Shown piece by piece: positions 9,964-32,884 of a DNA stretch of 64,000 nucleotides (positions are counted from its first letter, which is position 1; each line of letters starts with the position of its first letter). Where the stretch lies: positions 864,463 through 928,462 of the forward strand of contig OZ251575.1 of the NCBI GenBank assembly GCA_965243555.1, given 5' to 3'. The notes under the pieces are model-generated. The model was not told where the DNA came from. It did no database searches and saw only the letters and a list, made by a program, of their open reading frames with translations. The position numbers and the translations under genes were made by a program. The DNA is from Spirochaetia bacterium (GTDB lineage Bacteria; Spirochaetota; Spirochaetia; SZUA-6; Bin103).

Positions 9964-9975
9964 TCAGATTCCTCC

Positions 9976-10896: not shown

Positions 10897-10907
10897 GTCG
10901 TACCTCC

Positions 10908-11204: not shown

Positions 11205-11283
11205 TAGCACCTGCCCATCCAATGGGTTGAGCAGGCTGCGATTCGACTCCACCACGTCCGCCGGCGGCGCAGCGGCCGCGGCG

Positions 11284-13131: not shown

Positions 13132-13132
13132 C

Positions 13133-13402: not shown

Positions 13403-13534
13403 GTGATACAGTCTTCGTCAAAAGCCCAAATAAAGGTACGTACACAGGAATGCCCTGCAGAGCCGCTCAGGCGATAGCGCGCCGCCGCGGCCGGCGGTGC
13501 GCCGTACGTACCAATCGAGGAGTTATCATAGGCC
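13403..13534. promoter_or_regulatory. Divergent intergenic region between the zinc-ribbon/portal operon (minus) and the terminase gene (plus).
   Basis: An AT-richer 132-bp stretch with a direct repeat TGATACA x2. GAGGAG lies 12 nt before the terminase ATG. Confidence 0.3.
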
Positions 13535-15289: not shown

Positions 15290-15443
15290 CCGGAGGGCCG
15301 ACGCCCCCTTACCATCGTCGCAGCTTGCGGCTGGCGCAAGCGCAACAGGCGCTGTCGTTAGGCCGGTCGCGCCGCCCGCCGGGATTGAGCCCCCGGCGCG
15401 CGGCATCCAAAAAATTTGGGCGCGTATACTCGCGGATGCTCTC

Positions 15444-15800: not shown

Positions 15801-15830
15801 TATCGCCTATGATTACACTTATAGGCGATG
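15801..15830. promoter_or_regulatory. Inverted repeat TATCGCCTAT-N10-ATAGGCGATg overlapping the recombinase start codon and putative promoter (TTGACC at 15790).
   Basis: The arms match 9/10 bp. A -35-like TTGACC lies 5 bp upstream. Candidate operator or recombinase-binding site. Confidence 0.45.
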
Positions 15831-19208: not shown

Positions 19209-20756
19209 TCAGCCGGCGGCCACCTCGAAGGCGGTCACGTTGCGAGTCGCGCGGCTGAACTCCACCCCGAGCAGGTGGATCGGCTCGCGCCCGTCCCGGT
19301 ACTTGGCGGCGTAGTCGCGCTCCCGCAACTGCGCCAGCGCGGTCCCCTCCCCCGCCTGCTCCGTTACCTTGAACTCGAACAGGTACACCTGCCCGCCGGC
19401 CCGCACCGCCATGTCCAGCCGCCCGACCGCGCTCGAATCCTCCACCACAATGTCATAGCCCAGCGCCGCGAAGTAGGAGTAGAACACGCTCGCGTAGTAG
19501 CCCTCGTAGCGGGCGATGTCGTTGTTGGAGTGCCACTCATACGGGATGCTCGCAAAGAAGGCGTGGAACAGCTCCCGCAGCCCGGCGCAGTCGGCCGCTT
19601 CCAGCAGGCGCGCCAGGCGGAAGCTGTTGGCCATCTGCCGGTCTCCGTCCCGCACCAGATGGCGCAACAGCACGTCGTTCAGGCTCTGCCGCACCTCCCG
19701 GTTCGGGTAGCCCAGCCGGTACACTGCCCTCCCGCCCAGCTCATCTTCCGCCTTGATCGTCAGGTAGCCGGTCTGGAACAGCAGCGCCTGGGTGCCTATG
19801 TGCTCCACGTCGAACGCCGACAGCAGCTCCTCGGTACCGACCATGTCGGCCAGCGACACGGTGGAGACTCGCCGCTCAAACAGCGTGTCGATCAGGAACG
19901 CCGGCGAGCCGGTCTCGAACCAGTGGGGCTTGAACTTGCGGCTGTCGAACAGCAGCAGCAGGTCAAACGGGTTGTACACCTTCTCGTCGCCCAGCCAGCA
20001 GTACCCGTTGTACCACTCGCGGATGCGATCGCGGTCCAGCCCCGGCAGCTCCGGGGCGAATACGGTGTCCAGGTCTTCTTCGGTGTAGCCGCAGATCGCC
20101 GAGTAGCGCGGGTCCAGCGTGAGGTCGGTGAGGTTGTTGAGGTCGGAGAACAGACTCATCTTGGAGAACTTGCTCACCCCGGTCAGGAAGGTAAAGCGCA
20201 CGTGCGCTTCACTGTCCTTGATCACCCCGTACAGACCGCGCAGGAAGGCGCGGTTGGCGCGGGCTACCTCGGGGGTTTCCAGCGCGTCCAGGATCGGCTT
20301 GTCGTACTCGTCCACCAGCACCGCCGCCTGCTGCCCGGTACGCTCGTGCAGGGCTTCCAGCAGGGATGCGAAACGGCCCGGCGCCGTCAGGTAGTCCGCC
20401 TCCACCCCGTTGCGCCGCTCCACGGCCGCGAGCTGCTCCATGACGTTGTCCCGCAACAGTCCCGGCTCCCTGAAACTGCCGCCGCCGAAGCTGAGCCGCA
20501 CCACGGGATGGCGCTGCGACCAGTCATGGCGTCCGTGGACGTGGAGCCCCTCGAACAATGCCTTGCTGCCCTCGAACAGCTCCTTGAGCGTGTCCAGAAA
20601 CAGACTCTTGCCGAACCGCCGCGGCCGCGACAGAAAGTAGTGCGTGCCCCCGTCGAGCAGACGTTCGACGTAGGGCGTCTTGTCCACGTAGTAACAATTC
20701 CGCTTGCGGAGCGTGCGGAAGGTCTGGATGCCGGTGGGCAGCCTGCGCCGGACCAT
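19209..20756 (-). CDS. Paralog A1: AAA-ATPase-like N-terminal domain plus C-terminal PD-(D/E)XK nuclease-like domain (~515 aa).
   Basis: N-terminus MVRRRLPTGIQTFRTLRKRNCYYVDKT..YFLSRPRRFGKS (the predicted-ATPase family signature). The C-terminus has D...FEFK (PD-(D/E)XK). I trimmed the track ORF to the Met homologous to the A2/A3 start. Confidence 0.7.
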   Translation of the reverse strand: MVRRRLPTGIQTFRTLRKRNCYYVDKTPYVERLLDGGTHYFLSRPRRFGKSLFLDTLKELFEGSKALFEGLHVHGRHDWSQRHPVVRLSFGGGSFREPGLLRDNVMEQLAAVERRNGVEADYLTAPGRFASLLEALHERTGQQAAVLVDEYDKPILDALETPEVARANRAFLRGLYGVIKDSEAHVRFTFLTGVSKFSKMSLFSDLNNLTDLTLDPRYSAICGYTEEDLDTVFAPELPGLDRDRIREWYNGYCWLGDEKVYNPFDLLLLFDSRKFKPHWFETGSPAFLIDTLFERRVSTVSLADMVGTEELLSAFDVEHIGTQALLFQTGYLTIKAEDELGGRAVYRLGYPNREVRQSLNDVLLRHLVRDGDRQMANSFRLARLLEAADCAGLRELFHAFFASIPYEWHSNNDIARYEGYYASVFYSYFAALGYDIVVEDSSAVGRLDMAVRAGGQVYLFEFKVTEQAGEGTALAQLRERDYAAKYRDGREPIHLLGVEFSRATRNVTAFEVAAG

Positions 20757-20769
20757 TCGTTCTCTTACC

Positions 20770-22662
20770 TCACACCCACGCCAGCAGCTCAAAGACGGTG
20801 TTGGCAAGCAACGTTTCGCCGTTGCCCACCAGGTAGACGATGTCCTTATCCGTATTAACCGTAGTGCCCGACCATTCCCGTTGTAACACTATCTTGACCC
20901 TGCGAACGGTGGCATCGTTCGTGGCCGACACCAGGTAGACGTTTGCGCCCAACCCGGTAACCCTTTGGTTCCACAGGACAGACGCCGCGAATCCCGTCCA
21001 CGGCAGAACCACTTCGGAGACTACCGCCGCACCGATCTTGACGCGAAACACGAGACCCAACCACGAATTCGGCAGCCGCCGCGGAACGTTCATCTCGCTT
21101 ACCCCACGCGCCGGTGACACCAGGTCGAATCCTGCGGGCGCCGTCCCCTCGATGACCCAGTTGACCGGCGGAAGCGTAGACGCGGAGTACAAGCCGGCGG
21201 CGGGCGACAGCGTCGCTATCAGCGCGCCGACGTGATTCGGCGTCCACGCCGCCGGCGTCTCGGTGCCGTCCGCAGCGACTTTGACCCACGAAAGCGTGCC
21301 GGCGGTCTCGTCCAGGCTCTTGACGTGCTGCTCGCGCGCCTCCGCCTGCAGCCGCGCCTTGCTCATGGTGCGGTAGCCGTACAACGACGCCTCAGGGTAT
21401 GCCGTAACCGCCTTCGACGCCGTAAACGCGGCCACGTAAAACCCGACGTCGCCCAAGTACAGAATCCCAGCAGCAGGGTCGTATGCCGCCCCCGTCAACC
21501 CGCGAAAGCCGGACCGGCCTGCCGTTACCTGCGAACCGGTGAGGGTAAGCCCCGGAACTTCTTTACCGGTGGCTACGTTGTAGGCGTACACCGCGTCTCC
21601 GCTGCCCCCGTAGATCAGCACGTCCCCTACGAACGTCGCAGCGCCGACCCCCTCCGTTCCCGGCAGCTTCACGTGCTTGGTAGCCGTGCCGCTCTTGAAC
21701 ACGCGCGCAAGACCGAACCCGTCAATCACCCACAGATCGTTGTCGTGCCATGCCATACACCACACGCTTCCCAACCTGCCAACGGCCAACTTGGAAACTT
21801 TGATCTCGTCCCCGGCCACCTCCTCGGGCCTTTGCTCAGCCGTTCCGGGGTGCGACAACCTGAACACCTTGATCGGCTTACGGTACCCGTCCGCCGTAAT
21901 CGCGAGCTTTTTGCTGGTGTGGTTGTAGGACAGTCCATGGACCGGAGCAACACCAGTCCCGGTGATGTCCGCGCCGGGAAACCTGCGACCGTTCTTGAAC
22001 GCGAAGACTCTGCCCGAACGAGTACTGCCAACGAGGACCACGCCATTCTCAACGACTTCCAAGGCGCCTGGCTTGATCCTGCCCAACTCAGTCGCATCAA
22101 TGTCCTTGCTGCTATCTCGGTTCCACCCCGTTACCGCGCCATGCGTGAGCCGAAAATTGATCCTCACGTATGCCGGGGCCTCAGTGCTCAGCACAGCAGG
22201 ATCGCCGCCAAGCGCCTCCGCGGTGACGATCGCCAGGGTATCGGTGGTCCCCGTGTCCTTGATCACCTTCTCAATGCTCTTCCTATCCGTCACCGCCGCC
22301 TCCGCAGTGGCGCCCATCTGCAAGATAAGCGCATCGACCGTGCCGGCGGCGAACAGGTTGGCCAGCGTCCGAGAGGCGTCATGCGGCAAAGTCGTCACCT
22401 TGAACTTGCCGGCGTCCCGGTTGCCGCTCGTACCCACGCGCACGTAGGAAAACTGCGCAGTCACCGCCCCGTCCGCGCTAATCGGGAACGTGCCCTGATA
22501 GGTCCGCGTCCGGGCGTTGTGCTCCAGCCGCACTACGTGAGGATCGGACTTCTGAATCGCCTCCAGACGCCACTCTTTGACCGGATCAAGCGCCCGTTGC
22601 GCGAACTTGTCGGCTGCGGCCAATTCACGGCCGGCTTGCGGCCGGGGATTGGTAACCGCCAC
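20770..22662 (-). CDS. Paralog B1: large protein (630 aa) with a beta-propeller-repeat body related to the phage tail protein, plus the conserved B-family C-terminal domain.
   Basis: GTG start per the track. The body shares repeats and the motif LSWVKVAADGTETPAAWTP with the 3931..7593 tail protein (NVLSWQDKAADGTTTPRQWTP). The C-terminal ~110 aa are homologous to B2 and B3. The 5' end sits out of frame behind a leader module. Confidence 0.55.
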   Translation of the reverse strand: MAVTNPRPQAGRELAAADKFAQRALDPVKEWRLEAIQKSDPHVVRLEHNARTRTYQGTFPISADGAVTAQFSYVRVGTSGNRDAGKFKVTTLPHDASRTLANLFAAGTVDALILQMGATAEAAVTDRKSIEKVIKDTGTTDTLAIVTAEALGGDPAVLSTEAPAYVRINFRLTHGAVTGWNRDSSKDIDATELGRIKPGALEVVENGVVLVGSTRSGRVFAFKNGRRFPGADITGTGVAPVHGLSYNHTSKKLAITADGYRKPIKVFRLSHPGTAEQRPEEVAGDEIKVSKLAVGRLGSVWCMAWHDNDLWVIDGFGLARVFKSGTATKHVKLPGTEGVGAATFVGDVLIYGGSGDAVYAYNVATGKEVPGLTLTGSQVTAGRSGFRGLTGAAYDPAAGILYLGDVGFYVAAFTASKAVTAYPEASLYGYRTMSKARLQAEAREQHVKSLDETAGTLSWVKVAADGTETPAAWTPNHVGALIATLSPAAGLYSASTLPPVNWVIEGTAPAGFDLVSPARGVSEMNVPRRLPNSWLGLVFRVKIGAAVVSEVVLPWTGFAASVLWNQRVTGLGANVYLVSATNDATVRRVKIVLQREWSGTTVNTDKDIVYLVGNGETLLANTVFELLAWV

Positions 22663-22820
22663 ACCTTCGGCTCGCCCGTAATCGCTACCGCCTGCGTCTC
22701 CTTCCCGCTCGAAATGATGACGTTCGTAGCCGCAAGCAGTGCCTCATTATGCCGCAGTGCAGCCTCGAACTCGGAGGGCTGTGGGTTCGATTGCCGTCTC
22801 GGCCCCGTAGGTCGCAGCAT
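22533..22820 (-). pseudogene. Leader-module ORF (MLRPTGPRRQSNPQPSEFEAALRHNE...) that runs out of frame into the B1 body.
   Basis: AGGAGG-N8-ATG leader near-identical to the B2 5' end. The reading frame is offset by 1 nt from the B1 frame. This may be a recombination junction, a frameshifted gene, or a site of programmed frameshifting. Confidence 0.35.
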
Positions 22821-22824
22821 CAGC
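22778..22824. repeat. Conserved leader-module core (type I) upstream of B1.
   Basis: About 47 bp (CGATTGCCGTCTCGGCCCCGTAGGTCGCAGCATCAGCTCCACCTCCT) near-identical to 24606..24652. It contains the RBS and start of the leader peptide. Confidence 0.7.
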
Positions 22825-23107
22825 TCCACCTCCTTGCATCTTTGCATCTTTGCGCAGCCGCGCCGTAGCGTGCCAGTTCAGACCCATTCGTATACCTCAA
22901 TGGTTGCTTGGGCCGGAATCTCATTGCCATTACCACGCACGTCAAGCTTGTGTCCGCGCGGTCCGGGTCGGCATCCGGTACCTTCGGCGTGCCCGGAATC
23001 GCTACCGCTACCGACTCCTTCCCGCTCGGAATGGTGACGTTCGCCGCCGCCGTAAGCAGTTGCTCGTCGTACCGTAGCGCCTGCTCGAACTCAGCCCGCC
23101 CTACCAC
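22820..23107 (-). pseudogene. Truncated B3-type 5' gene fragment (VGRAEFEQALRYDEQLL...DPDR, then divergent).
   Basis: It matches the B3 N-terminal ~50 aa and diverges after DPDR. It is preceded by a type II leader carrying ACG in place of the ATG. Confidence 0.4.
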
Positions 23108-23177
23108 TTGGCACTCGCCTCAATCTGCCCCCGCACCGGCGGCTGCGCTATCGGCCGCCGGTGGCGGGGCCGGGGGT

Positions 23178-23224
23178 TGATGGCCGTTTCGGCCCGTAGG
23201 GTCGCAACGTCAGGTCCACCTCCT
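23178..23224. repeat. Conserved leader-module core (type II, with start codon mutated to ACG) upstream of the truncated B fragment.
   Basis: Near-identical to 29628..29677. Confidence 0.7.
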
Positions 23225-24638
23225 ATACCCATGCGCGCAATTCGAAAGTGGTATTGGTCTTGATAGGCGTGTTGTTGCCAATTACAAATAGCGCATCCTT
23301 GCGTGGACGGATGTACTCTCGCTGCAGCGCCAACTTGATGTTGCGCCTCGTCCTGTCATCGGTCGCATTGATGATGTAAACTGATGTACCCAAATGGTCT
23401 TCGACTTCGCTTTGCCAGGCTGATCCTGTCCGGAAAGGCAACCACGGGACGTACACCCTCTCTATTACCTTCACCCCGACCTTCACCACGACGACCAACC
23501 CCAACCAGGATTCCGGAAGCACCCTGGGAACGTTCATCGAACCGAAGACATGCGGCGGGCCGACCCGGTCGAAGCCCGTCGGAATGCCGCTTGAAAACAC
23601 CCAGTCGGCTCCGGGGCGCGCGCTAGCCCCTGGCGTTCCCGCCGGCCACTCTAGTGTTGCTACCAAGGCCCCCACGTGAGTCCTCGGGGCCGCGTCCGTG
23701 GGTGAAAGGGATACGCCAAGGTCCGCGGTGATGCGGAACGTGCGAGACTCCGCTGCTCCCTGGTAGGTCCAGTAGTAGCCGGTGGTGTTGTTGGCGTTGC
23801 GGCCAAGGTAGAAGTGAACTTCGCCGAGCTTGACGTTCGACCGGTACACGCCTACGCCGCCGCCGATCTCCAGCCCCTCCACGGGGTCGCCAACTTCCCA
23901 ACTCGCCACCGCCGCAAGCTCCGAGAGAAAGACAATCTCGGTGATGTCGTGCGTCCTATTATTGTCGGTGGTGAAGCCAATATCGTCGGTCCTGCCGCCG
24001 CCGGTGATCGTCAGGGTCAGCGACACGTACAGCTCTCCGCGGTTGTAGTCGTCCAGGTCCAATGGCGTGCTGAACGGAATCAGCGCGGCACCACTAACTT
24101 GGTTGTCGGAGCTGTCATTCACGTCAAGGGCAGCGATGGTGGCGCGATCTTCCAGCACGGTGAGGCGCGGAACAGGGGGCAGCTTTACCGCCGCGATCTT
24201 CGACGCGTTCGAACGGCGCGCCCACGGTTCAAGGTCAATCGAAGACACCGTGATCGCTACCGAGTAGGTGCCCGCCCGATCCGCGGAGAACAGGAACTGC
24301 GAATCGGTCGACCGCGCCAGCATGCAGAGCGTGCTGCCCATCGAATGCACGACGGCGTTCTTTGAATTCAGCTCCGCGCCGCGCGTAACTACCGGCTTCG
24401 CCAGCAAGGCCGACAGGTCGAACCGCACGGCGCTGACGCCCACCTTCCATATCACCTCACGGTCCGGGTCGGCATCCGGCACCTTCGGACTGTCCGTGAT
24501 CAATGCCGCCTGCGTCTCCGACCCGTTTTGAATGGTCACGCTCTTCGCCGCAGGCCATGGCTCGTTATGCCGTAGCGCCGCCTCGAACTTGGAGGGCTGT
24601 GAGTTCGATTGCCGTCTCGGCCCCGTAGGTCGCAACAT
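23223..24638 (-). CDS. Paralog B2 (~471 aa): fused leader, B-type body, and conserved C-terminal domain.
   Basis: AGGAGG lies 8 nt before the ATG at 24638. The N-terminus is MLRPTGPRRQSNSQPSKFEAALRHNE. The body is homologous to B3. The C-terminus is homologous to B1 and B3 (NVPRVLPESWLGLVV...FELRAWV). Confidence 0.55.
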   Translation of the reverse strand: MLRPTGPRRQSNSQPSKFEAALRHNEPWPAAKSVTIQNGSETQAALITDSPKVPDADPDREVIWKVGVSAVRFDLSALLAKPVVTRGAELNSKNAVVHSMGSTLCMLARSTDSQFLFSADRAGTYSVAITVSSIDLEPWARRSNASKIAAVKLPPVPRLTVLEDRATIAALDVNDSSDNQVSGAALIPFSTPLDLDDYNRGELYVSLTLTITGGGRTDDIGFTTDNNRTHDITEIVFLSELAAVASWEVGDPVEGLEIGGGVGVYRSNVKLGEVHFYLGRNANNTTGYYWTYQGAAESRTFRITADLGVSLSPTDAAPRTHVGALVATLEWPAGTPGASARPGADWVFSSGIPTGFDRVGPPHVFGSMNVPRVLPESWLGLVVVVKVGVKVIERVYVPWLPFRTGSAWQSEVEDHLGTSVYIINATDDRTRRNIKLALQREYIRPRKDALFVIGNNTPIKTNTTFELRAWV

Positions 24639-24652
24639 CAGGTCCACCTCCT
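24606..24652. repeat. Conserved leader-module core (type I) at the B2 5' end.
   Basis: Matches 22778..22824. Confidence 0.7.
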
Positions 24653-24717
24653 TACATCTCTCTGTGCCGATAGTAGCTCACCTCGCCGTCCACCGCCACC
24701 GTGCCACCCACCGCAAT

Positions 24718-26583
24718 CTAGTCGTTGTCCAGGATGGTGACGGTCGCCGTGCACCGCCCCCCGCAGGTTACGTTGGTACTGTGAGGCCGATCATCAGTTG
24801 GGGTCAGGCCGATTTCCTCCAGATCGCGCGTGCTGAGCGGGCCGATGTGCAGCTGGAACGTCTCCGTCTCTTCTTTGACGAGATCGCCGACTATGCGAAA
24901 CTGAATTTCTTGTGAACACCGAGGGTCATCGTCGCCCGGCGCACGACTGCAAGGGGGGTTCCCGGTGAAGTAGCCCCAAACAAAGTCGATGATTCCGCTA
25001 CGTAAATTAATAGGAAAAAGAATCGTGTAGTCGGTGCCAGAGCAGCTTCCCGAAGGGGTGTGCTGCGTCCGGGGTGAGGTGCACGGGGTTGCCGTGCCCG
25101 GCGTAGCCCAGTATTTGAAATACAAGTGCTCGGGGATTGAGGTCACATTAAGGTATATCTTGACCTGTACCCATCCGTTCTCGTAGCCTTCGGTTAAAGT
25201 ATCGTCGCGTTCCGTAAAGGTATAGGTCAGGTCGGCGAACGAGATCGTCGGCGGCGTCTCCTCGGCCGGTGGAGGGACTGGGGCCGGCGGCTCCGCGGTT
25301 GGCGGCGCCGGCTGCTCGGCCGGTGGCGGCGCTGGGGCGGTGGTGAACGACCACACCTTGCCAAAGCCCTCTAACCCGCTTTCGTTCAAGGCATCCACCA
25401 TCCAATAGTAGCGCGTTTCGGGCGCCAGCTCCGCCGACGTGGGGATCCTCAAGAAGGTAGACGTGGTTCGAGTCGACCTGTTCCGCCAAAGGAGCTCACT
25501 TGTGGTGCTCCAGTACACATTGTAGTGGGTAGCGCGGGGCGCGGCGGCCCAACTCAAAAGCGGCCCGGCAACCGTCACGCCGGTCGCCCCGTCGCGCGGC
25601 TGCGGGTTGCTGGCATATCCGGGAGCGCGTATGGTGGTGAACGACCACACGTTGCCGCGGATGGTGCCGGCTTCGGTCTTTACGTCCACCCGCCAGTAAT
25701 AGCGCGTTTCCCACAGCCGAGGCGCCCAGGCGCCAACCTCATAGGAGTTGTTCACGGTATTGAGCGGCCATTCCGTACCCTCAAGGCCGTCCGCGGGGAG
25801 ATCGTTCGTGGTGCCCATGTAGAAGTCGTAGCTGAGAGCGCCGGGCGCGGCGTCCCAACTGAAAGTTACTGCGCCGCGGCTCACGCCGGTCGCCCCGTTG
25901 CGGGGCGACGGGTTCCTGGCAGCTCCGGGAGGGCCGGTTGCGGGCGGCGGAGCACCGTCGCCCGGCGGCGGACTCGGAGCCGGCGGCGTCTCATCGCCCG
26001 GGGCCGGACCTGGGGCGGGCGGCGTTTCATCGTCGCGCGGCGACGGACCCACGGTCGGCGGCGCGGGCCGGCCGGCGGGGATGGTCGGCGCCACGTCGTC
26101 CGGCAGGGTTTCCAGGTCGAAGTCATCCGGCAGGTCGATCACTCGCGCTATGCACTCGTCGTTGGTGTTGACCACGCAGCTCGAGCCGTCGGCGCGGCGG
26201 CTGAGGACGTACAACCGATTACCGCCGGGGTAACGGATCACGATCAGATAGTACTGCGACTGCTGCGCCTGCTCGGTCCGGCCGTCCGGCACCGACAAGC
26301 CGGCCTGCAGCGACTGATTCGCGGGGTCCATGCAGGTGGCCGGCGCGGTGGCGCCGCCCATGTGCAGCTTGTCGGAGACGATCGCGCCGTGGACTCCCGC
26401 GCCGCGGTCGAGCAGCCGAATTGCCGAGTCGTCGCACGAGGCCTGCGGCGCGGCCGGCGCCGGGTTCGCCGCAGTCTCCGGCTCCGGGTCCGGGGTGACC
26501 GCCGCCCCGCAGGCGGCCAGGATTGCGGTCAGCGCGAACAGCGCCGCCCACCGTGTCCACAAGCGTTTCGTTGTCTTTATCAT
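24718..26583 (-). CDS. Paralog L1: secreted lipoprotein (~621 aa) with a Pro-rich linker, FN3-like repeats, and a C-terminal Calx-beta-like domain.
   Basis: Signal peptide plus lipobox (LTAILAAC). YYWRVD...VWSFTT FN3-like motifs occur twice. The C-terminal TVTILDND resembles a Calx-beta end. The first ~230 aa are near-identical to L2. I trimmed the start to MIKTTKRLW. Confidence 0.6.
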   Translation of the reverse strand: MIKTTKRLWTRWAALFALTAILAACGAAVTPDPEPETAANPAPAAPQASCDDSAIRLLDRGAGVHGAIVSDKLHMGGATAPATCMDPANQSLQAGLSVPDGRTEQAQQSQYYLIVIRYPGGNRLYVLSRRADGSSCVVNTNDECIARVIDLPDDFDLETLPDDVAPTIPAGRPAPPTVGPSPRDDETPPAPGPAPGDETPPAPSPPPGDGAPPPATGPPGAARNPSPRNGATGVSRGAVTFSWDAAPGALSYDFYMGTTNDLPADGLEGTEWPLNTVNNSYEVGAWAPRLWETRYYWRVDVKTEAGTIRGNVWSFTTIRAPGYASNPQPRDGATGVTVAGPLLSWAAAPRATHYNVYWSTTSELLWRNRSTRTTSTFLRIPTSAELAPETRYYWMVDALNESGLEGFGKVWSFTTAPAPPPAEQPAPPTAEPPAPVPPPAEETPPTISFADLTYTFTERDDTLTEGYENGWVQVKIYLNVTSIPEHLYFKYWATPGTATPCTSPRTQHTPSGSCSGTDYTILFPINLRSGIIDFVWGYFTGNPPCSRAPGDDDPRCSQEIQFRIVGDLVKEETETFQLHIGPLSTRDLEEIGLTPTDDRPHSTNVTCGGRCTATVTILDND

Positions 26584-26663
26584 CGTCAGTCTCCTCTCGG
26601 AACGGTCGCCAGTGCCCTGGGTATAACCCAGCGAGCGAGCGAATCTCCTGCGCGGCTCTGGTC

Positions 26664-28076
26664 CTAGTCGTCGTCTATGATCGTGAGTTTCGCCCGGCAC
26701 CGGCCGCAGGTCACCGGGAAACCTTTATGAGGGATGACTTCTATGAATACCGTCTCATTTTCTTCCTTTACCCGATCGCCGATAATGACTGGCCCATGAC
26801 TAAACGGCCCGCAGACTCGGTGTGGCGAACCTTCAGGAATATTGCGGCACGGCTCCATCTCATAGTGCGCGGAGAAATCAACCCAGTCGACTCCTTCCGC
26901 CACCCTCATTTGAAGATCGAAGTGCCCGTCGGTCGCCGTGCCCCCGCCCATCTTAAAGAAAATATGGAGGTCCCGGGCCGCCGTGACGGGCGAACTCAAG
27001 GTCACCTCGAAGTCGACATCAAAATACCCGTCGTCGCCTTCGAGAACGCTCTGATCGGCAGAAAGCGATATCGTCGGCTGCGCTGGCGTCTCCTCGGCCG
27101 GTGGAGGGGCTGGAACTGGGGCCGGCGGTGGCGCCGCGGCAGGAGCGGTGGTGAACGACCACACGGCGCCGCGGGTGGTCCCGGCTTCGTTCTTTGCGTC
27201 CACCCGCCAGTAGTAGACCGTTTCGGCATCCAGATCCGCCGAGGCTGAGATCCTCAAGGCCGTGAACGAGGTGTTGATCGGCGTATCCAGGTCGGTGTTC
27301 TCGGCGCCCCAGTACACGTCGTAGCTGAGCGCGCGCGGCGCGGCGGCCCAACTCAAGAGCGGACCGCCAACCGTCACGCCGGTCGCCGCGTCACTCGGCT
27401 GCGGACTGGTGGCAGCTCCGGGAGGCGTGCCGGCTGTGGGCGGCGGCGCACCGTCGCCCGGCGGCGGACTCGGAGCCGGCGGCGTCTCATCACCCGGGGC
27501 CGGACCTGGGGCGGGCGGCGTTTCATCGTCGCCCGGCGACGGACCCACGGTCGGCGGCGCGGGCCGGCCGGCGGGGATGGTCGGCGCTATGTCCTCCGGC
27601 AGGGTTTCGAGGTTGAAGTCATCCGGCAGGTCGGTCACTCGCGCTATGCACTCGTCGTTGGTGTCGACCACGCAGCTCGTGCCGTCGGCGCGGCGGCTGA
27701 GGACGTACAGCCGATTACCGCCGGGGTAGCGGATCACGATCAGATAGTACTGCGACTGCTGCGCCTGCTCGGTCCGGCCGTCCGGCACCGACAAGCCGGC
27801 CAGCAGCGACTGATTCGCGGGGTCCATGCAGGTGGCCGGCGCGGTGGCGCCGCCCATGTGCAGCTTGTCGGAGACGATCGCGCCGTGGACTCCCGCGCCG
27901 CGTTCGAGCACGCTGATCGCCAGGTCGTCGCACGAGGCCTGCCGCGCGGGCGGCTCCAGGTTCGCCGGCGGCTCCAGGTCCGGGGTGACCGCCGCCCCGC
28001 AGGCGGCCAGGATTGCAGTCAGCGCAAGCAACGCCGCCCACCGTGTCCACAACCACAATGCTTTCGTTGTCTTCAT
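26664..28076 (-). CDS. Paralog L2: secreted lipoprotein (470 aa) with an FN3-like repeat and a C-terminal Calx-beta-like domain.
   Basis: Start MKTTKALWLWTRWAALLALTAILAAC (lipobox). C-terminal motif KLTIIDDD. The N-terminal half is near-identical to L1. The C-terminal region is lower in GC. Confidence 0.6.
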   Translation of the reverse strand: MKTTKALWLWTRWAALLALTAILAACGAAVTPDLEPPANLEPPARQASCDDLAISVLERGAGVHGAIVSDKLHMGGATAPATCMDPANQSLLAGLSVPDGRTEQAQQSQYYLIVIRYPGGNRLYVLSRRADGTSCVVDTNDECIARVTDLPDDFNLETLPEDIAPTIPAGRPAPPTVGPSPGDDETPPAPGPAPGDETPPAPSPPPGDGAPPPTAGTPPGAATSPQPSDAATGVTVGGPLLSWAAAPRALSYDVYWGAENTDLDTPINTSFTALRISASADLDAETVYYWRVDAKNEAGTTRGAVWSFTTAPAAAPPPAPVPAPPPAEETPAQPTISLSADQSVLEGDDGYFDVDFEVTLSSPVTAARDLHIFFKMGGGTATDGHFDLQMRVAEGVDWVDFSAHYEMEPCRNIPEGSPHRVCGPFSHGPVIIGDRVKEENETVFIEVIPHKGFPVTCGRCRAKLTIIDDD

Positions 28077-28107
28077 CGTCAGTCTCCTCTCCGCACTAAC
28101 GGGGTTG

Positions 28108-29556
28108 TCATATCCACTGGAGCAGCTCGATGGAGGTGCCGGCCTTGATCTGCTCGGCGTTGCCCACGACCTCGAGGCGGTCCTTCGTCGTACTGGCCCA
28201 CTCGCGTTGCAGCACCAGCTTCACGGTGCGTGCCGTGGAGTCGTCACTTACGAGCAAATGGAATACGTTCGTGCCGAAGGGGGAGGGTCCTATCCGACTG
28301 TCCCAGGCAACGTCTTCGTGGATGGGGACCCAGGGAAGGAATACCTGCGACACCGTATTGGTGGTGCCCACCTTCGTCCGCACTACCACGCCCGCCATGT
28401 TATCCGGCAGCACCCTCGGAACGTTCAACTGCCCGTTGCTGCCTCCGGTCGCTTCGAAATCACGGGGAGCCCCGCTTTGCACCACCCAGGCCGCAGCCGG
28501 GCGCGCATTCGCCGCTAGCGTGCCGGCAGGAATGTCAAGCTTGGCAATCAACGGTCCGACGTGTCCGGTAGACGAAGTAGCCGCGGGCGCGTCAGTCCGC
28601 GAGAACGACACCTCCATCGTGGCGGTCAGTGTCACATCCGACCCGCTCGTCCCGCCACCGGAGTAGCGCAGCAGGTAACCGAGCTCGTTGTTGGCGTTCT
28701 TGGCAAAGTAGAACGACAGCAGACCCAGTTGGTTGAAGCTATCGTGCAGGTACACGCTGGAACCGACCGGCTCCCCGTGAAAGGGCCCACTGCTCACGTA
28801 CGTACCCAGTGCAGATACATCCGATGCCAACACTACTCCGTCGAACGTGTAGGTACGGTCCTCGTTCGTGCCGAAACCGGCCACTAGCACCGAACGATCG
28901 TCGAAGGTAACCGTCATCACCACGTGCAACTCGCCGGTCCGGTGTTCGTCCAGATCGAATGCCGGCGCCAGCGCCCTGAACGAGCCGGTTGACATGCTGT
29001 TGGTGTTATGGATGCGCATCCCGACAGCCCTCCCGGCGTGCAGAATCTGCAGCCCGGTCAGCTTCCGCACGCGCGCGTCGACCTGTGCCTGCGTCAGCCA
29101 CGGCGACGGCAGATTCGCCGCCGCGACCTTCGTCGCGTTCGACCGGCGCGCCCACGGTTCAAGGTCAATCGAGGACACCGCGAGCTCCACCGAGTAGGTG
29201 TCCGCCCGGTCCGCGGAGAACAGGAACTGCGAAGCGGCCGTCTCCGACGCGGCCGTCCGCGCCAGCATGCAGAGCGTGCTGCCCACCGAGAACACGACGG
29301 AGTTGGTTGAATCCAAGACCGTGGTCGTCGTAACTGTCACCGCCGGCTTCGCCCGCAACGCGGACAGGTCGAACCGCACGGTGCTGCCGTCCACCGTCCA
29401 TATCACCTCACGGTCCGGGTCGGCAGCCGGCACCTCCGGCGTGCCCGGAATCGCTACCACTACCGATTCCTTCCCGCTCGCAATGGTAACGGCCGTAGCC
29501 GGGAGCAGTTGCTCGTCGTACCGTAGCGCCCCCTCGAACTCGGCACGCGCTACCAT
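28108..29556 (-). CDS. Paralog B3 (482 aa): B2-like body and conserved C-terminal domain, preceded by a leader uORF.
   Basis: Its ATG lies within AAATGGTAG and overlaps the uORF stop. The N-terminus MVARAEFEGALRYDEQLL is homologous to the B2 segment SKFEAALRHNE. The body (STLCMLAR..SSIDLEPWARRSNA) is homologous to B2. The conserved C-terminus ends ..ELLQWI. Confidence 0.55.
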   Translation of the reverse strand: MVARAEFEGALRYDEQLLPATAVTIASGKESVVVAIPGTPEVPAADPDREVIWTVDGSTVRFDLSALRAKPAVTVTTTTVLDSTNSVVFSVGSTLCMLARTAASETAASQFLFSADRADTYSVELAVSSIDLEPWARRSNATKVAAANLPSPWLTQAQVDARVRKLTGLQILHAGRAVGMRIHNTNSMSTGSFRALAPAFDLDEHRTGELHVVMTVTFDDRSVLVAGFGTNEDRTYTFDGVVLASDVSALGTYVSSGPFHGEPVGSSVYLHDSFNQLGLLSFYFAKNANNELGYLLRYSGGGTSGSDVTLTATMEVSFSRTDAPAATSSTGHVGPLIAKLDIPAGTLAANARPAAAWVVQSGAPRDFEATGGSNGQLNVPRVLPDNMAGVVVRTKVGTTNTVSQVFLPWVPIHEDVAWDSRIGPSPFGTNVFHLLVSDDSTARTVKLVLQREWASTTKDRLEVVGNAEQIKAGTSIELLQWI

Positions 29557-29663
29557 TTGGCACCCGCCTCAATCCGCTCCCGCACCGGCGGCGGCGCTAT
29601 CAGCCGGCCGCGGCGGGGGCTGGGGCCCGATGGCCGTTTCGGCCCCGTAGTAGGTCGCAACAT
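29550..29663 (-). CDS. Leader uORF (37 codons, MLRPTTGPKRPSGPSPRRGRLIAPPPVRERIEAGAKW) upstream of B3, translationally coupled to it.
   Basis: AGGAGG lies 8 nt before the ATG. Its stop TAG overlaps the B3 start (ATGGTAG). It is the same leader as B2, with a ~75-nt insertion. Confidence 0.35.
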   Translation of the reverse strand: MLRPTTGPKRPSGPSPRRGRLIAPPPVRERIEAGAKW

Positions 29664-29677
29664 CAGGTCCGCCTCCT
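29628..29677. repeat. Conserved leader-module core (type II) at the 5' end of the B3 uORF.
   Basis: Matches 23178..23224. Confidence 0.7.
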
Positions 29678-29767
29678 GCATCCGTGCCCGGTCGTCGGAC
29701 AGTGCGAGCTCCAGGATTGGGTGTATCCATGCGCGTGTCAACCCGGCAAGCCCGGCCGGCCGGCGGG

Positions 29768-31315
29768 TCAGGCGTCGTCGGCCTCGAAGGCGGTCAGGGT
29801 GCGCGTCTTGCGGCTGAACTCCACGCCGATCAGGTGGATGGACTTACCGCGGCCCAGGTACTTGGCGGCGTAGCCGCGCTCCCGCAGCTGCGCCAGCGCT
29901 GCCCCCTCCCCCGCCTGTTCCACCACCTTGAACTCGAACAGGTAGACGTGGCCGCCGGTCCGCACCGCCATGTCCAGCCGCCCAACCGCGCTCGACTCCT
30001 CCACCACAATGTCATAGCCCAACGCCGCGAAGTAGGAGTAGAACACGCTGGCGTAGTAGCCCTCGTAGCGCGCGATGTCGTTGTTGACGTGCCACTCATA
30101 CGGGATGCTCGCAAAGAACGCTTGGAAAAGCTCCCGCAGACCGGCGCAGTCGGCCGCTTTCAGCAGGCGCGCCAGGCGGATTCTGTCCGCCGTCTGCGCC
30201 CGGGCGCCCGGCGCCAGGCGGCGCAACAGCACGCGGTTCAGGCTCTGCCGTACTTCCCGGTTCGGATAGCCCAGCCGGTACACCTGCTCCCCGTCCAGGT
30301 CCTCCTCGTCCGTGATCGTCAGATAGCCGGTCTGGAACAGCAGCGCCTCGGTGCCTATCTCCTCCACGTCGAACGCCGACAGCAGCTCACGAGTGCCGAC
30401 CATGTCCTCCAGCGAAACGGTGGAGACCTGCCGCTCGAACAGCGTGTCGACCAGGAACTTCGGCGAGCCGGTCTCGAACCAGTAGGCATCGAACTCGCGG
30501 CTGTCGAACAGCAGCAGCAGGTCAAACGGGTTGTACACCTTCTCATCGCCGCGCCAGCAATAGCCGTTGTACCACTCGCGGATGCGCTCGCGGTCCAGCC
30601 CGGCCAGCTCCGGGGCGAACACCGTGTCCAAGTCTTCCTCGGTGTAGCCACAGATCGCGGAGTAGCGCTGGTCCAGCGTGATGTCGGTGAGGTTATTGAG
30701 CTGCGAGAACAGGTTCACCTTGGAGAACTTGCTTACGCCGGTCAGCAACGCAAACCGTATGCGCGCGTCGCTCGCCTTGATCACCCCGTACACGTTGCGC
30801 AGAATGTCGCGGTTGGCGCTCGCCACGGCCGGCGTGCCCAGCATGTCCAGGATCGGCTTGTCGTATTCGTCCACCAGCACAACCACCCGCCGCCCGCTCC
30901 GTTGGTGCAGCACTTCCAGCAGGTGCGCGAAGCGGCCCGGCACCGTAAGAGCGTCCGTCTCCACCCCGTGGCGCCGTTCCTCGGCCGCGAGCAGGTCCAC
31001 GAGGCTGTCCTCCAACAGGTTCGGCTGCCGGTAGTCGCCGCCGGCAAAGTCCAGCCGCACCACCGGATTGGGCTCGCCCCAGGTCCAACCGGCATGGACG
31101 CGGAGCCCCTCGAACAGCTTCTCGCTGCCTTCGAACAGCTCCTTCATGGTGTCGACGAGTAAGCTCTTCCCGAACCGCCGCGGCCGCGACAGGAAGTAGC
31201 GCGTCCCTTCGGCGACCAGACGTTCGATGAAGGCGGTCTTGTCGACGTAGTAGCAGTTCTCCTCCCGCAGCACGCGGAAACTCTGGATGCCGATCGGCAA
31301 CCGGCGCTTGACCAT
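29768..31315 (-). CDS. Paralog A2: AAA-ATPase-like plus PD-(D/E)XK protein (515 aa).
   Basis: MVKRRLPIGIQSF...YFLSRPRRFGKS. The C-terminal 150 aa are almost identical to A3. Confidence 0.7.
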   Translation of the reverse strand: MVKRRLPIGIQSFRVLREENCYYVDKTAFIERLVAEGTRYFLSRPRRFGKSLLVDTMKELFEGSEKLFEGLRVHAGWTWGEPNPVVRLDFAGGDYRQPNLLEDSLVDLLAAEERRHGVETDALTVPGRFAHLLEVLHQRSGRRVVVLVDEYDKPILDMLGTPAVASANRDILRNVYGVIKASDARIRFALLTGVSKFSKVNLFSQLNNLTDITLDQRYSAICGYTEEDLDTVFAPELAGLDRERIREWYNGYCWRGDEKVYNPFDLLLLFDSREFDAYWFETGSPKFLVDTLFERQVSTVSLEDMVGTRELLSAFDVEEIGTEALLFQTGYLTITDEEDLDGEQVYRLGYPNREVRQSLNRVLLRRLAPGARAQTADRIRLARLLKAADCAGLRELFQAFFASIPYEWHVNNDIARYEGYYASVFYSYFAALGYDIVVEESSAVGRLDMAVRTGGHVYLFEFKVVEQAGEGAALAQLRERGYAAKYLGRGKSIHLIGVEFSRKTRTLTAFEADDA

Positions 31316-31339: not shown

Positions 31340-32884
31340 TCAGGCGTCCGCCGCCTCGAAGGCGGTCAGGGTGCGCGTCTCGCGGCTGAACTCCACGCCA
31401 ATCAGGTGGATGGACTTACCGCGGCCCCGGTACTTGGCGGCGTAGCCGCGCTCCCGCAGCTGCGCCAGCGCCGCCCCCTCCCCCGCCTGCTCCACCACCT
31501 TGAACTCAAACAGGTAGACGTGGCCGCCGGTGCGCACCGCCATGTCCAGCCGCCCAACCGCGCTCGACTCCTCCACCACAATGTCATAGCCCAGCGCCGC
31601 GAAGTAGGAATAGAACACGCTGGCGTAGTACCCCTCATAACGGGCTATGTCGTTGTTGGTATGCCACTCATACGGGATGCTCGCAAAGAACGCTTGGAAA
31701 AGCTCCTGCAGGCCGGCGCAGTCGGCCGCTTCGAGCAGGCGCTCCAGGTGCGTGCTGTTGGCCATCTGCCGCGCATCGTCCCGCACCAGATGGAGCAGCA
31801 GATGCTCATTCAGGCTCTGCCGCACCTCCCGGTTCGGATAGCCCAGCCGGTACACCGTTCTCCGGCCGCGCTTCACTTCCGTGATCGTCAGGTAGCCGGT
31901 CTGGAACAGCAGCGCCTCGGTGCTTACGTGATCCACGTCGAACGCCGACAGCAGGCGCTCGGTGCCCACCATCTGCTCCAACGATACGGAGGAGACCCGC
32001 CGCTTGAACAGCGTCTCCACCAGAAACGCCGGCGAGCCGGTCTCGAACCAGTGGGCGTCGAACGTGCGGCGGCGCAGCAGCAGTAGCACGTCGAACGGGT
32101 TGTAGACCTTCTCCTGGCCCAGCCAGCTATAGCCGTTGTACCAGGCGCGCACCTCCTCCCGGTCCAGTCCTCCGAGCTCCGGCGCGAACACGGTGTCCAA
32201 GTCGCCTTCCGTGTAGCCGCAGATCGACGAGTAGGCCGGCTCCAGCGTGATGTCGATAAGGTTATTGAGCTGCGAGAACAGGCTCATCTTGGAGAACTTG
32301 CTCACCCCGGTCAGAAACGTGAACCGTACGTGCGCGTCGGAGTCCTTGATCACGCCGTACACGCCGCGCAGGAAGCCGCGGTTGGCGCGGGCCACCGGCG
32401 GCGTCTCCAGCGCATCCAGGATCGGTTTGTCGTATTCGTCCACCAGCACCACGACCCGCCGGCCGGTCCGTTCATGCAGGGCTTCCAGCAGGTGCGCGAA
32501 GCGGCCCGGAACCGTGCGGGAGTGCGCATCCACCCCGTGGCGCCGTTCCATCGCCTCGATCTGCTCCAGGACGTTGTCCGCCACCAAGTACGGCTCGGTG
32601 AAGCTGCCGCCGGCGAAACTCAGCCGCACCACCGGATTGGGCTCGCCCCAGGTCCAGCCGGGGTGGATGCGGAGCCCCTTGAACAGCTTCTCGTTGCCCT
32701 CGAACAGCTCCTTCAGCGTATCCAGGAACAGGCTCTTGCCGAACCGCCGCGGCCGCGACAGGAAGTAGTGCGTACCTTCGTCGACCAAGCGTTCAATGAA
32801 GGCCGTCTTGTCGACGTAGTAGCAGTTCCGCTCCCGGATCCTGCGGAAGCTCTGGATGCCGATCGGCAACCGGCGCTTGACCAT
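31340..32884 (-). CDS. Paralog A3: AAA-ATPase-like plus PD-(D/E)XK protein (514 aa).
   Basis: Same family as A2. The first ~40 nt of the CDS and the ~25 nt upstream are identical to A2. Confidence 0.7.
   Translation of the reverse strand: MVKRRLPIGIQSFRRIRERNCYYVDKTAFIERLVDEGTHYFLSRPRRFGKSLFLDTLKELFEGNEKLFKGLRIHPGWTWGEPNPVVRLSFAGGSFTEPYLVADNVLEQIEAMERRHGVDAHSRTVPGRFAHLLEALHERTGRRVVVLVDEYDKPILDALETPPVARANRGFLRGVYGVIKDSDAHVRFTFLTGVSKFSKMSLFSQLNNLIDITLEPAYSSICGYTEGDLDTVFAPELGGLDREEVRAWYNGYSWLGQEKVYNPFDVLLLLRRRTFDAHWFETGSPAFLVETLFKRRVSSVSLEQMVGTERLLSAFDVDHVSTEALLFQTGYLTITEVKRGRRTVYRLGYPNREVRQSLNEHLLLHLVRDDARQMANSTHLERLLEAADCAGLQELFQAFFASIPYEWHTNNDIARYEGYYASVFYSYFAALGYDIVVEESSAVGRLDMAVRTGGHVYLFEFKVVEQAGEGAALAQLRERGYAAKYRGRGKSIHLIGVEFSRETRTLTAFEAADA

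Follow-up and report, generated by a model that had tools for sequence, protein, structure and literature searches.

The conserved leader of the B genes is, on our reading, probably a 5' junction that the members of a mosaic, phage tail-fibre-like gene family have in common and that is prone to recombination and to indels, and the upstream open reading frame (uORF) that it forms in some copies is most likely a by-product. We base this conclusion on the anatomy of the module in the window (the whole 64,000-nucleotide stretch of Spirochaetia bacterium DNA analysed here), on its variability among relatives, on the mosaicism of the genes and on their phage affiliation.

A scan of the window found exactly four copies of the module, AGGAGG-N8-ATG/ACG followed by MLRPTGP..., all on the minus strand (22810-22823, 23200-23213, 24628-24641 and 29653-29666; chance expectation 0.58), which bears out the sequence-only reading that each B gene carries a shared minus-strand 5' module, the copy in a truncated fragment starting with ACG. 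A fifth match with 2 mismatches at 47807 was unrelated to the module. Two of the copies are fused in frame to FEAALR (type I) and two carry a GC-rich extra segment of 70-74 nt (type II); the AGGAGG was found in all four and in every type I or type II relative except L051.

The intact type II gene of the window, B3 (28108..29556, minus strand), encodes a 482-aa tail-fibre/receptor-binding protein (RBP)-like product, P0046 in the public record. Its leader has a strong Shine-Dalgarno (SD) sequence, AGGAGG, at 29672..29677 (minus strand), 8 nt before the ATG at 29663 that opens the uORF (29550..29663, minus strand; 37 codons plus TAG, MLRPTTGPKRPSGPSPRRGRLIAPPPVRERIEAGAKW), and the first ~45 nt of this uORF are homologous to the type I N-terminal tag (MLRPTGPRRQSN...). 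As first described, the stop lies over the main start: the TAG ends at 29550 and the main ATG is at 29556, giving the overlap ATGGTAG. The type II-specific segment, delimited by alignments, spans 71 nt at 29545..29615 (minus strand) and is completed by a 3-nt ACT at 29648..29650 (74 nt in all); its 3' ~35 nt hold the initiation region of the main ORF, GATTGAGGCGGGTGCCAA-ATG, plus codons 1-4. Further upstream, a promoter-like site at 29713..29741 (minus strand; TTGACA at 29741..29736, a 17-nt spacer and AATCCT at 29718..29713), which is a consensus match only, has a counterpart in the aligned block of L003 (TTGACA-N17-TATACT), and a consensus promoter scan left the window B3 copy unflagged because of its weak -10.

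The type I gene B2 (23223..24652, minus strand; AGGAGG 24652..24647, ATG 24638, 471 aa from the ATG) has a 17-codon tag (24638..24588) in frame with FEAALR and the body, and its leader and body are indeed continuous, with 24638..23223 forming a single frame identical to P0014. In the other type I gene, B1 (20770..22834, minus strand; AGGAGG 22834..22829, ATG 22820), we could see the leader run in frame into FEAALRHNE and then out of the frame of the 630-aa body ORF (22662..20770), as had been reported; the frame changes because an internal deletion, which follows the leader and 53 N-domain codons, has taken out residues 54-177 as numbered on the full-length relative P0023. The truncated type II fragment (22820..23224, minus strand) has an AGGAGG (23224..23219) overlapping the B2 stop, an ACG at 23210 in place of ATG and a main GTG at 23107; its extra segment measures 70 nt, and an internal deletion in its body joins residue ~80 of the N-domain to the last ~20 codons, the intact counterpart being the 451-aa gene P0019 in L006. 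The independent 37-codon uORF ascribed to this fragment does not exist, as its first codon is ACG and the next frame, from a TTG, has 19 codons and closes 40 nt before the GTG. The window B1 and the fragment are decayed copies.

The two isoforms are real and are set apart by a discrete indel. Both occur in independent metagenome assemblies (L002-L006 and L052-L054), so the ~75-nt difference is no artefact, and the leaders recur in the homologous loci of related assemblies, although all relatives come from one set of metagenome scaffolds and their diversity is low. The distance from ATG to TTCGAG is exactly 51 nt (17 codons) in type I, in both window copies and in 8 of 8 scaffold copies examined, and 93-125 nt in type II. 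There are, however, more than two forms: further junction variants exist, P0024 among them, in which the leader reads through as an in-frame fusion, and the proposed toggle between fused and coupled expression is better described as two points on a wider range of junction variants than as a demonstrated switch. Indels between loci fall at short repeats (GGGGCC/GGGGCCC, C5/C6 and (GCC)3/(GCC)1).

The main ORF of type II genes has a separate initiation region, TGAGGnGGnTGCCAA-GTG, which is present without any leader in L001. This region (...GCCAAGTG) is kept in loci where the uORF is altered or missing, with the exception of L053, which has the variant GCCTAGTG and where GGGGAGAATGCCTAGTG immediately follows the upstream gene. 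L001 and L051 share AGGAGGATGCCAAGTG, their SD-start blocks being identical at 16 of 16 positions, and the L001 copy sits behind a promoter-like TTGACA-N17-TATCCT of its own. The first main codons (VV[AG][RL]xE) align with the long adaptor-fibre forms. In B3, the main SD is GAGG, 10 nt upstream of the start and weaker than that of the uORF; more generally, the main SD is weaker (GAGGCGGG or GAGGCGAG) in the clade with a strong upstream SD than in relatives lacking the leader or its SD (GAGGAGGA).

We compared the uORF among 9 type II copies from 7 scaffolds and found it in all three frames, with 19-43 codons and an end between -40 and about +17 nt from the main start. Four near-identical copies (window B3, L002, L004 and L005) have 36-37 codons and a stop at +7; in L003, the L006 middle gene and L052 the uORF shares the main frame, runs for 20-29 codons and closes with a TGA 12 nt before the GTG; that of the window fragment stops at -40 after 19 codons; and the uORF of L051, about 43 codons without an SD, extends beyond the main start to a stop at about +17. 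The initiation signal AGGAGG-N8-ATG is present in B3, L002-L005 and L052 and weakened to ACG in the L006 middle gene and the window fragment, such that 2 of the 9 copies miss the uORF ATG and 1 of the 9 (L051) the SD; L001 and L053 have no uORF. We found no conserved uORF peptide, the sequences after MLRPTGP being entirely different between loci. The B3-type uORF is therefore not a conserved unit. Its TAG derives from the second main codon, GTA, and a TAG stands at the equivalent place in L051, whose uORF is in another frame.

Mosaicism is visible both around and inside the leader. A promoter-leader-N-domain unit with 96-98% nucleotide identity precedes bodies of different kinds; P0013 matches B3 at 93% identity along no more than 34% of its length, and P0002 does so at 72% along 66%. 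The L052 type II copy combines the upstream flank of the window type I gene B2 (ggcacagagagatgcaaggagg) with a 3' half of the L006-middle type and has lost an internal stretch, and in one L004 gene the start of the leader is joined directly to SIDLEPWARRSNA; to judge by these junctions, recombination occurs inside the leader. Among the family proteins gathered by a first search and a cluster look-up, 24 of 46 start with ML(R/Q)PTGP..., MPPPTGQSQQSNPQPSE, MLQPPTEPGRQSEPQPSE or shortened versions of these; in its fused form the tag is old.

These observations fit the following arrangement. The module opens with very strong initiation signals (AAGGAGGTG, 7-8 nt, ATG), behind which comes an N-terminal tag of ~17 codons rich in Pro, Arg, Gln and Ser, the tag being joined to a conserved N-terminal domain of ~135 residues (FEAALR...SSIDLEPWARRSNA..KLP) that bears interchangeable C-terminal bodies. 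Type I, where the protein carries the tag as a fusion, is the widespread form, and type II is a composite, in which the 5' module lies upstream of the second, independent initiation region (TGAGGnGGnTGCCAA-GTG/ATG) of a "short-start" sub-family whose first codon corresponds to the first V of the VVGLxE linker in the long adaptor-fibre fusions. Between the two initiation regions, the GC-rich spacer probably gains and loses bases at short C-runs and GCC repeats, and the orphaned tag therefore turns into a uORF of arbitrary frame and length, which in the B3 clade happens to stop on the TAG made by the main second codon GTA. B3 probably has two routes to translation: some ribosomes would start directly at its weak SD, and others, having loaded at the strong SD upstream, would re-initiate; the direction of the rearrangements and the share of each initiation route are what we infer here.

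We considered two origins for the spacer. Descent from the coding stretch found ahead of FEAALR in the long adaptor-fibre fusions (...QVDARIxA...VVGLxE) was not supported, with a nucleotide local score of 16 against 19.8 +/- 3.4 for shuffles and a peptide score of 125 against 117 +/- 8, equalled by 187 of 1000 shuffles. The comparison with the L001 promoter region (CCTGTTGACAGC and GGCTGATAGC) gave a local score of 26, where mononucleotide shuffles gave 17.2 +/- 2.8 and 4 of 500 scored as high; this is suggestive of a decayed copy of that region, on which we do not rely.

Termination-reinitiation coupling through overlapping stop and start codons is common in bacterial and phage operons, and the anatomy of the B3 clade fits it, with an upstream ORF opened by a strong SD and an ATG, a stop over the downstream start (ATGGTAG) and a weak downstream GAGG 10 nt away. 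The leader had been proposed as a translational-coupling or regulatory element; the B3 clade has the anatomy expected for coupling, but the uORF is not conserved among homologous loci. It is possible, though we consider it unlikely, that the type II leader is a functional coupling device independent of the encoded peptide, in which ribosomes load at the strong upstream SD, cross the GC-rich spacer and re-initiate at the weak main start; with the same reserve, such a device could set the level of B3 expression compared with that of the fused type I genes. Wherever an intact type II gene has a translatable, SD-driven uORF, the stop lies close to the main start, at -12 or +7 nt, and only in the pseudogene copy is it far (-40), an observation that runs against the by-product reading. 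Main SDs are stronger where a translatable uORF is missing (L001 and L051). Stop proximity and a weaker main SD together are the pattern that selection for coupling would produce, although with about 5 independent events chance could still account for it. In the B3 clade, moreover, a 7-bp stem (GUAGCGC/GCGCUAC) directly follows the start codon, where a terminating ribosome would open it.

On the other side, the uORF of the intact L006 middle gene starts with ACG, the frame and length of the uORF vary between loci, and the TAG comes from codon GTA and is found at the same place in L051 with a uORF in the other frame. L051 lacks the 7-bp stem, and in the L006/L052 clade a mismatch in it is left uncompensated; the SD-start region has a predicted accessibility of 0.56-0.62, not below the 0.45-0.55 of type I starts, and none of the fold z-scores is significant. 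We discarded the idea that a hairpin masks the main start on the same grounds, the B3-clade stem being neither conserved nor significant and predicted accessibility not lowered. Known coupled operons differ in two ways: here the upstream partner is no gene but an ORF whose start, frame and length change from one homologous locus to the next, and the downstream gene brings an initiation region of its own, found in relatives without the leader. We also rejected programmed -1 frameshifting as the link between the uORF and B3: seen from the uORF the main frame is indeed -1, but the site GCC-AAA-TGG (GCC-AAG-TGG in relatives) is not a slippery heptamer, and the uORF is in other frames at other loci. 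Our literature search for comparable uORF and tail-fibre cases found nothing relevant. We keep to the shuffled 5' junction with an incidental uORF as the preferred reading.

A more dynamic role for the spacer would be that of a hypermutable contingency switch, in which slippage at C-runs and GCC repeats shifts the uORF frame among overlap-coupled, TGA-closed, early-stop and, as in P0024, fully fused states, and so varies the expression of alternative receptor-binding proteins in the population. The positions of the locus-distinguishing indels at short repeats (GGGGCC/GGGGCCC, C5/C6, (GCC)3/(GCC)1), the occurrence of all three uORF frames and the in-frame fusion of P0024 are in line with such a switch. 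The tracts, however, are only 5-9 nt long (C5-6, G4C2-3 and (GCC)1-3 runs), well under those of known contingency loci, the main start is retained in every frame state, and the variants come from different scaffolds rather than one population, some being possibly assembly errors; we regard the switch as very unlikely. Only as a speculative idea of low probability do we mention the GC-rich spacer as a population-level dial, with slippage indels moving the uORF among these same four states; if this were true, cells or particles would differ in the amounts or the N-terminal forms of alternative receptor-binding proteins.

The leader had further been described as more conserved than the gene bodies. 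This is true with respect to the C-terminal bodies (the whole B3 and B2 proteins share 42% identity) but hardly so for the N-domain: between types, the first 45 nt of the leader are mostly 84-89% identical, compared with 75-78% for the N-domain, and the window B3 copy has no excess (75-77% vs 75-78%). These 45 nt are slightly better kept than the coding N-domain even where translation is unlikely (L051 and the L006 middle gene). Gene conversion accounts for this slight excess, though it is not proven by it. We give scant credence to the alternative that the conserved nucleotides form a structured cis-regulatory or small RNA. The GC-rich composition and a conservation at the nucleotide level that includes copies probably not translated would suit such an RNA, but structure prediction gave fold energies not under those of shuffles (z-scores of +1.43 and +0.10), the alifold covariation term was unfavourable (+1.47, with 1 of 30 pairs compensatory), no Rfam match reached the gathering score, and none fell in the leader in an E<=1 scan of 22600-29800; the small structured RNA of the sequence-only reading is thereby already weakly refuted. 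A site scan found no terminator-like site in the leader. Regulatory leader peptides and attenuators such as trpL, ermCL and tnaC share with the B leader a short ORF in the 5' leader of a gene; the B leader, unlike these, has no conserved peptide, no terminator or alternative hairpins and no significant structure.

Finally, the module could be the target of a site-specific recombination system that exchanges or mobilises B cassettes in the manner of shufflons, Gin/Cin or integrons. B genes are found in tandem arrays and at unrelated chromosomal places, including between atpG and atpD, the leader forms the junction between successive cassettes, and the window holds a tyrosine recombinase gene (15828-16817). 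We nevertheless judge a dedicated recombination site highly improbable: the module copies of the window are all direct repeats with no inverted copy (the sole inverted repeat in the window is unrelated to the module), the B genes of L001, L004, L006, L051, L052 and L058 have no linked recombinase, arrays without this leader exist (L058), and the end points of deletions differ, as expected from homologous or illegitimate recombination. In phage Mu (Gin and the G segment), phage P1 (Cin) and shufflons, tail fibres are switched by DNA inversion. As there, several alternative C-terminal receptor-binding modules here share one constant N-terminal part; in contrast, the B copies are complete genes with their own starts in one orientation, and we found neither inverted repeats of the module nor an invertase linked to B genes.

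By sequence and gene context, the B genes belong with phage receptor-binding or tail-fibre-like modules. Within virion gene clusters, relatives carry head-tail adaptor domains as fusions; P0017, with an adaptor-type N-terminus, is part of a TerL-capsid-protease-portal cluster, P0049 contains an SU10 adaptor domain, and the body of B1 is homologous to a prophage adaptor-fibre protein. The best fold matches of a B protein (moderate-confidence model, pLDDT 72.6) are phage RBPs and fibres, weak but consistent. The family counts about 500 relatives in public metagenome and genome proteins; it contains no Pfam domain and has no match to cultured phages (tblastn) or PDB sequences, and searches with N-domain peptide patterns did not find it in GTDB representative genomes, IMG/VR or JGI metagenomes. 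IMG/VR likewise has no exact copy of the leader DNA, and the single JGI match to a degenerate leader pattern was an unrelated chance match.

Fibres of the T7 gp17 type and the tailspike sets of SP6/K1-5 and Klebsiella phages combine a constant N-terminal attachment domain with exchangeable C-terminal parts. The B family resembles them in its conserved ~135-residue N-terminal domain on unrelated C-terminal bodies, in the fusion of relatives to head-tail adaptors inside virion modules and in its weak but consistent fold matches to phage RBPs and fibres; it differs in having no sequence similarity to any cultured phage or solved structure and no Pfam family, and in that several copies stand alone outside the prophage structural module, among housekeeping genes. 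The wider locus comprises arrays of B genes with paired lipoproteins, adjoining repeated AAA-ATPase/PD-(D/E)XK genes, once inside an ATP synthase operon. In phage T5, the receptor-binding protein pb5 adjoins the lipoprotein Llp, which blocks the receptor; here, however, the fold match to pb5 is weak (model pLDDT 72.6) and the lipoproteins, at 470-660 aa, are large and carry Fn3-like repeats.

In annotation, the start of B3 and of its relatives should be placed at the ATG/GTG of MV(A/G)RAEFE, and the upstream frames of 19-43 codons should not be called genes. The leader itself adds little new, and the wider B-gene locus may deserve follow-up more than the leader. The analysis places an unannotated family among the modular phage receptor-binding proteins and shows the place where its modules are joined.

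Searching the window for the CTGATGTTGCGACC motif with at most 1 mismatch, we found exactly four copies, all on the minus strand, against 0.58 expected by chance. They belong to four tail-fibre-like genes: B1 (body 20770..22662, leader ATG at 22820), a fragment (22820..23224), B2 (23223..24638) and B3 (28108..29556), all on the minus strand. In B3, AGGAGG (29677..29672) is followed after an 8-nt gap by the ATG at 29663, which opens an upstream ORF (uORF, 29550..29663) of 37 codons ending in TGG-TAG at 29550; the start codon of B3 itself, ATG 29556, is contained in AAATGGTAG. Alignment of the four copies bore out the single length difference proposed from the sequence alone, one block of ~71 nt being present in B3 and the fragment (type II, with an extra GC-rich segment and a uORF) and missing from B1 and B2 (type I, with the leader tag fused in frame to FEAALR). 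B2 is uninterrupted and identical to a public protein (P0014) that was itself called from the leader ATG. Relative to the full-length P0023 (819 aa), B1 lacks residues 54-177, and it is this frame-shifting deletion that breaks its reading frame; the 3' end of B1 overlaps the start of an AAA-ATPase gene (20770 vs 20807). The fragment is an internally deleted version of a gene that survives intact, with 451 aa, in a related metagenome scaffold (L006); in the fragment, the first ~80 codons run straight into the last ~20. The 37-codon uORF ascribed to it is not there: ACG replaces ATG, and from the next TTG the frame shuts after 19 codons. Two of the four window copies, B1 (20770-22847) and the fragment (22820-23224), are decayed.

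The division of the leader into two isoforms held in that the 51-nt type I form and type II both recur in related scaffolds, but further junction forms exist. Counted from the leader ATG, TTCGAG (the Phe-Glu of FEAALR) is reached after exactly 51 nt in 10/10 type I copies examined (2 in the window, 8 in related scaffolds) and after 93-125 nt in type II copies; scaffolds with the 51-nt leader include L006, L052, L053 and L054. The fused tag was found in 24 of 46 family proteins (first search plus cluster look-up), including diverged versions (MLRPTGPRRQSKPQPSE, MPPPTGQSQQSNPQPSE, MLQPPTEPGRQSEPQPSE) and shortened ones (MLQPPQPSG, MLQPTGE). Such spread and divergence at the protein level make the fused form an old one, and the tag itself is an extension of low complexity under loose constraint. 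Among the other junctions, one relative (P0024) reads without a break from MRPTGQ via QVSGRAK to FEAALR. Three tandem B genes in L058:1-4700 have zero intergenic space, each next GTG start overlapping the previous stop (GTGGGTATAA or GTGGGTGTGA); there the MLRPTGP module is absent and the N-termini are MGIRRFRQRSKFEAALR and MGVRRFRRRPEFEAALR instead. In a 744-aa B-like gene (L004:3600-3700), the leader start (GGGACCTGATGTTGCG) abuts the end of the conserved N-terminal domain (N-domain; SIDLEPWARRSNA), and this gene is another deletion with an end point inside the leader.

Type II leaders also occur in L002, L003, L004/L005, L006 (middle gene) and L052, with a diverged form in L051. Their uORFs show all three frame relations to the main ORF, and the peptides have nothing in common after MLRPTGP. 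In window B3 (37 codons) the TAG lies at +7 from the main start and overlaps its ATG; in L002, L004 and L005 (36 codons) it lies at the same position and overlaps a GTG. The uORF ends with a TGA 12 nt upstream of the main start in L003 (28 codons, in the main frame after a gain of one C and a loss of 6 bases), in the L006 middle gene (29 codons counted from TTG, the first codon being ACG) and in L052 (20 codons, with a 29-nt internal deletion). The 19-codon frame of the window fragment, whose first codon is ACG, stops at -40, and that of L051 (~43 codons) begins at an ATG without a Shine-Dalgarno sequence (SD) and ends ~17 nt past a main start that has a strong SD. A programmed frameshift from the uORF into B3 was considered and rejected, as there is no slippery site and the frame relations differ among loci. 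In the type II leader of L052, the upstream flank is that of window type I B2 and the 3' half that of the L006-middle gene, a composite that points to recombination inside the leader.

Two leaderless short-start relatives show the main start's own initiation region: L001 has a promoter-like site followed by AGGAGGATGCCAAGTG, and L053 has GGGGAGAATGCCTAGTG 28 nt past the preceding gene. Since both have a start region without any leader, TGAGGnGGnTGCCAA-GTG is the gene's own initiation region, and this block falls within the type II "insertion". Long fusion proteins read ...VVGL(T/R)E|FEAALR at the entry to the N-domain, and the short class begins M-V-(A/G)-R-A-E|FE, so that the short-class start codon corresponds to the first Val of the VVGL(T/R)E linker. 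We favour, with some confidence, a reading in which the module combines a very strong shared initiation region with an N-terminal tag that is dispensable, and type II is a composite that has this module ahead of a native initiation region, the second of the two. The spacer between them, rich in G+C, is prone to indels at C-runs and GCC repeats, and, because it gains and loses bases, the orphaned tag would become a uORF of arbitrary frame; that such slippage serves as an expression dial is the least conventional reading, and we consider it very improbable. The stop-start overlap in B3 arises because the second codon of the main ORF is GTA, and L051, with its uORF in another frame, has a TAG at the same place. 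Ribosomes probably start B3 directly at GAGG-N10-ATG, and re-initiation by those terminating at the overlapping TAG probably adds to this. That re-initiation, independent of the peptide, is itself the selected function is the main rival, which we regard as unlikely: the uORF stop does lie at -12 or +7 in all intact genes with an SD-driven uORF, and the main SD is weaker where an upstream SD is present, but these amount to ~5 independent events and cannot be told from chance.

The B3 leader resembles an ordinary overlapping-ORF coupling site. The defining features of an attenuator, a riboswitch-type RNA and an inversion switch were each looked for in it and not found, and it is none of these. 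The sequence-only reading had offered a small structured RNA or a recombination site, and neither was upheld. The 186-nt leader and the 96-nt extra segment fold no better than dinucleotide shuffles (z +1.43 and +0.10). When eight type II leaders are folded to a consensus, the covariation term is unfavourable and 1/30 pairs is compensatory. No Rfam family reached its gathering score anywhere in the window, and scanning 22600-29800 at E<=1 likewise placed no hit in the leader. A 7-bp stem (GUAGCGC/GCGCUAC) directly 3' of the B3 start codon is absent from L051 and, in the L006/L052 clade, contains a mismatch that is not compensated; the SD-start region is predicted to be at least as accessible as at type I starts. 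We found no inverted copies and, in related scaffolds, no linked recombinase. The leader had also been said to be conserved more strongly than the gene bodies. Over its first 45 nt, type I and type II are mostly 84-89% identical, compared with 75-78% in the N-domain, an excess of about five positions that is seen in the other copies but not in window B3 (75-77% vs 75-78%). Gene conversion among tandem paralogues together with selection on a strong initiation region explains this excess as well as any further function would.

The N-domain (~135 residues, FEAALR...PDADPDREVIW...LCMLARS...QFLFSAD...SSIDLEPWARRSNA..KLP; 61-69% identity among diverse members) carries unrelated bodies. P0013 matches B3 at 93% identity confined to the first 34%, P0002 has a ~190-residue insertion, and the B3 promoter-leader-N-domain unit keeps 96-98% nucleotide identity in L002, L003 and L004 despite differing downstream bodies. 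B genes form tandem arrays in the window, L006 and L058, and an AAA-ATPase_like/PDDEXK_9 gene lies immediately upstream of a B gene in the window, L003, L004, L052 and L053; in L004 it comes after an SMC_N/AAA_15/AAA_21 ATPase gene. Three such paralogues, spanned by repeat families of 65-90% nucleotide identity, bracket the window's B cluster (19209-20807, 29768-31315, 31340-32884). B genes adjoin housekeeping genes in L054, and in L051 one is located between atpG and atpD. There, L051:4875-8316 holds a B gene (frameshift-split at ~6030) and a lipoprotein gene within an otherwise ordinary F-type ATP synthase operon; the TTGACA of the promoter-like site just before the leader contains the atpG stop, and the lipoprotein start overlaps the B stop. 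This arrangement could be either a mobile module of two genes that inserted here or a chimeric assembly. Downstream of B3-type genes there are regularly 1-2 large lipoprotein genes (window 24718-28076; L001:4285-7692; L051:6901-8268), whose products have an LAACG lipobox, Fn3-like repeats, a conserved N-terminal region and a C-terminal "...C(G)RC(R/T)A..TI(I/L)D(D/N)D"; over a stretch of 300 nt, the two window copies are 95% identical.

The window has a G+C content of 68% and encodes a ribosomal protein S1 that shares 95% identity with its counterpart in an uncultured Spirochaetia genome. Podovirus-type virion genes at ~1,250-15,300 encode a P22/SU10-type portal and a 1281-aa protein with an N-terminal SU10 adaptor domain; a T7-type terminase domain is matched there too, weakly and below threshold. 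Within this structural region, ~10-12 tandem 18-nt units (CGGCGCCCGCGCCACCAC, plus strand, 10677-10910) lie inside a minus-strand ORF (9976-10896) and code for a Gly/Ala-rich repeat. The virion genes are followed by an integrase (15828-16817) and an AbiE toxin-antitoxin pair (17661-19102), made up of an AbiEii toxin gene (Pfam E 2e-23) and an ORF overlapping it upstream that is its likely AbiEi partner, and then by the B cluster, with three AAA-ATPase_like/PDDEXK_9 genes and two lipoprotein genes interspersed. As the AbiE genes lie between the integrase and the B cluster, the integrase separates the virion genes from the B genes. The B cluster may be part of the prophage or an island next to it.

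No Pfam or PHROG family was matched by the B proteins. A word-indexed search gave 45 relatives, and for 44 of these ENA metagenome assemblies are the only source, with all 15 retrieved contigs coming from one scaffold series (PANK22-1); a profile search of 1.8 billion representatives gave 504, many of them 800-2000 aa long with B domains internal or C-terminal. One relative, P0017, has a head-tail-adaptor-like N-terminus homologous to the prophage 1281-aa protein (39% over 105 aa), and its gene sits between a prohead protease and a portal-like gene, adjoined by TerL and an HK97-type capsid gene. An SU10 adaptor domain is found in P0049 and collagen repeats in P0083, and the B1 body shows homology to the central part of the adaptor-fibre protein encoded in the window itself (E 2e-16). 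Because relatives sit in a virion gene context and are fused to adaptor domains, we regard B as a receptor-binding or tail-fibre module of phage origin, an assignment well supported by gene context and fusions and weakly by fold. The arrangement is like that of phage modular receptor-binding proteins, in which a constant attachment domain carries swappable distal parts. Phage T5 pairs a receptor-binding protein with a receptor-blocking lipoprotein, and the pairing of B3-type genes with lipoprotein genes recalls it. The B proteins form a family undescribed in the libraries searched, and one of an already familiar kind.
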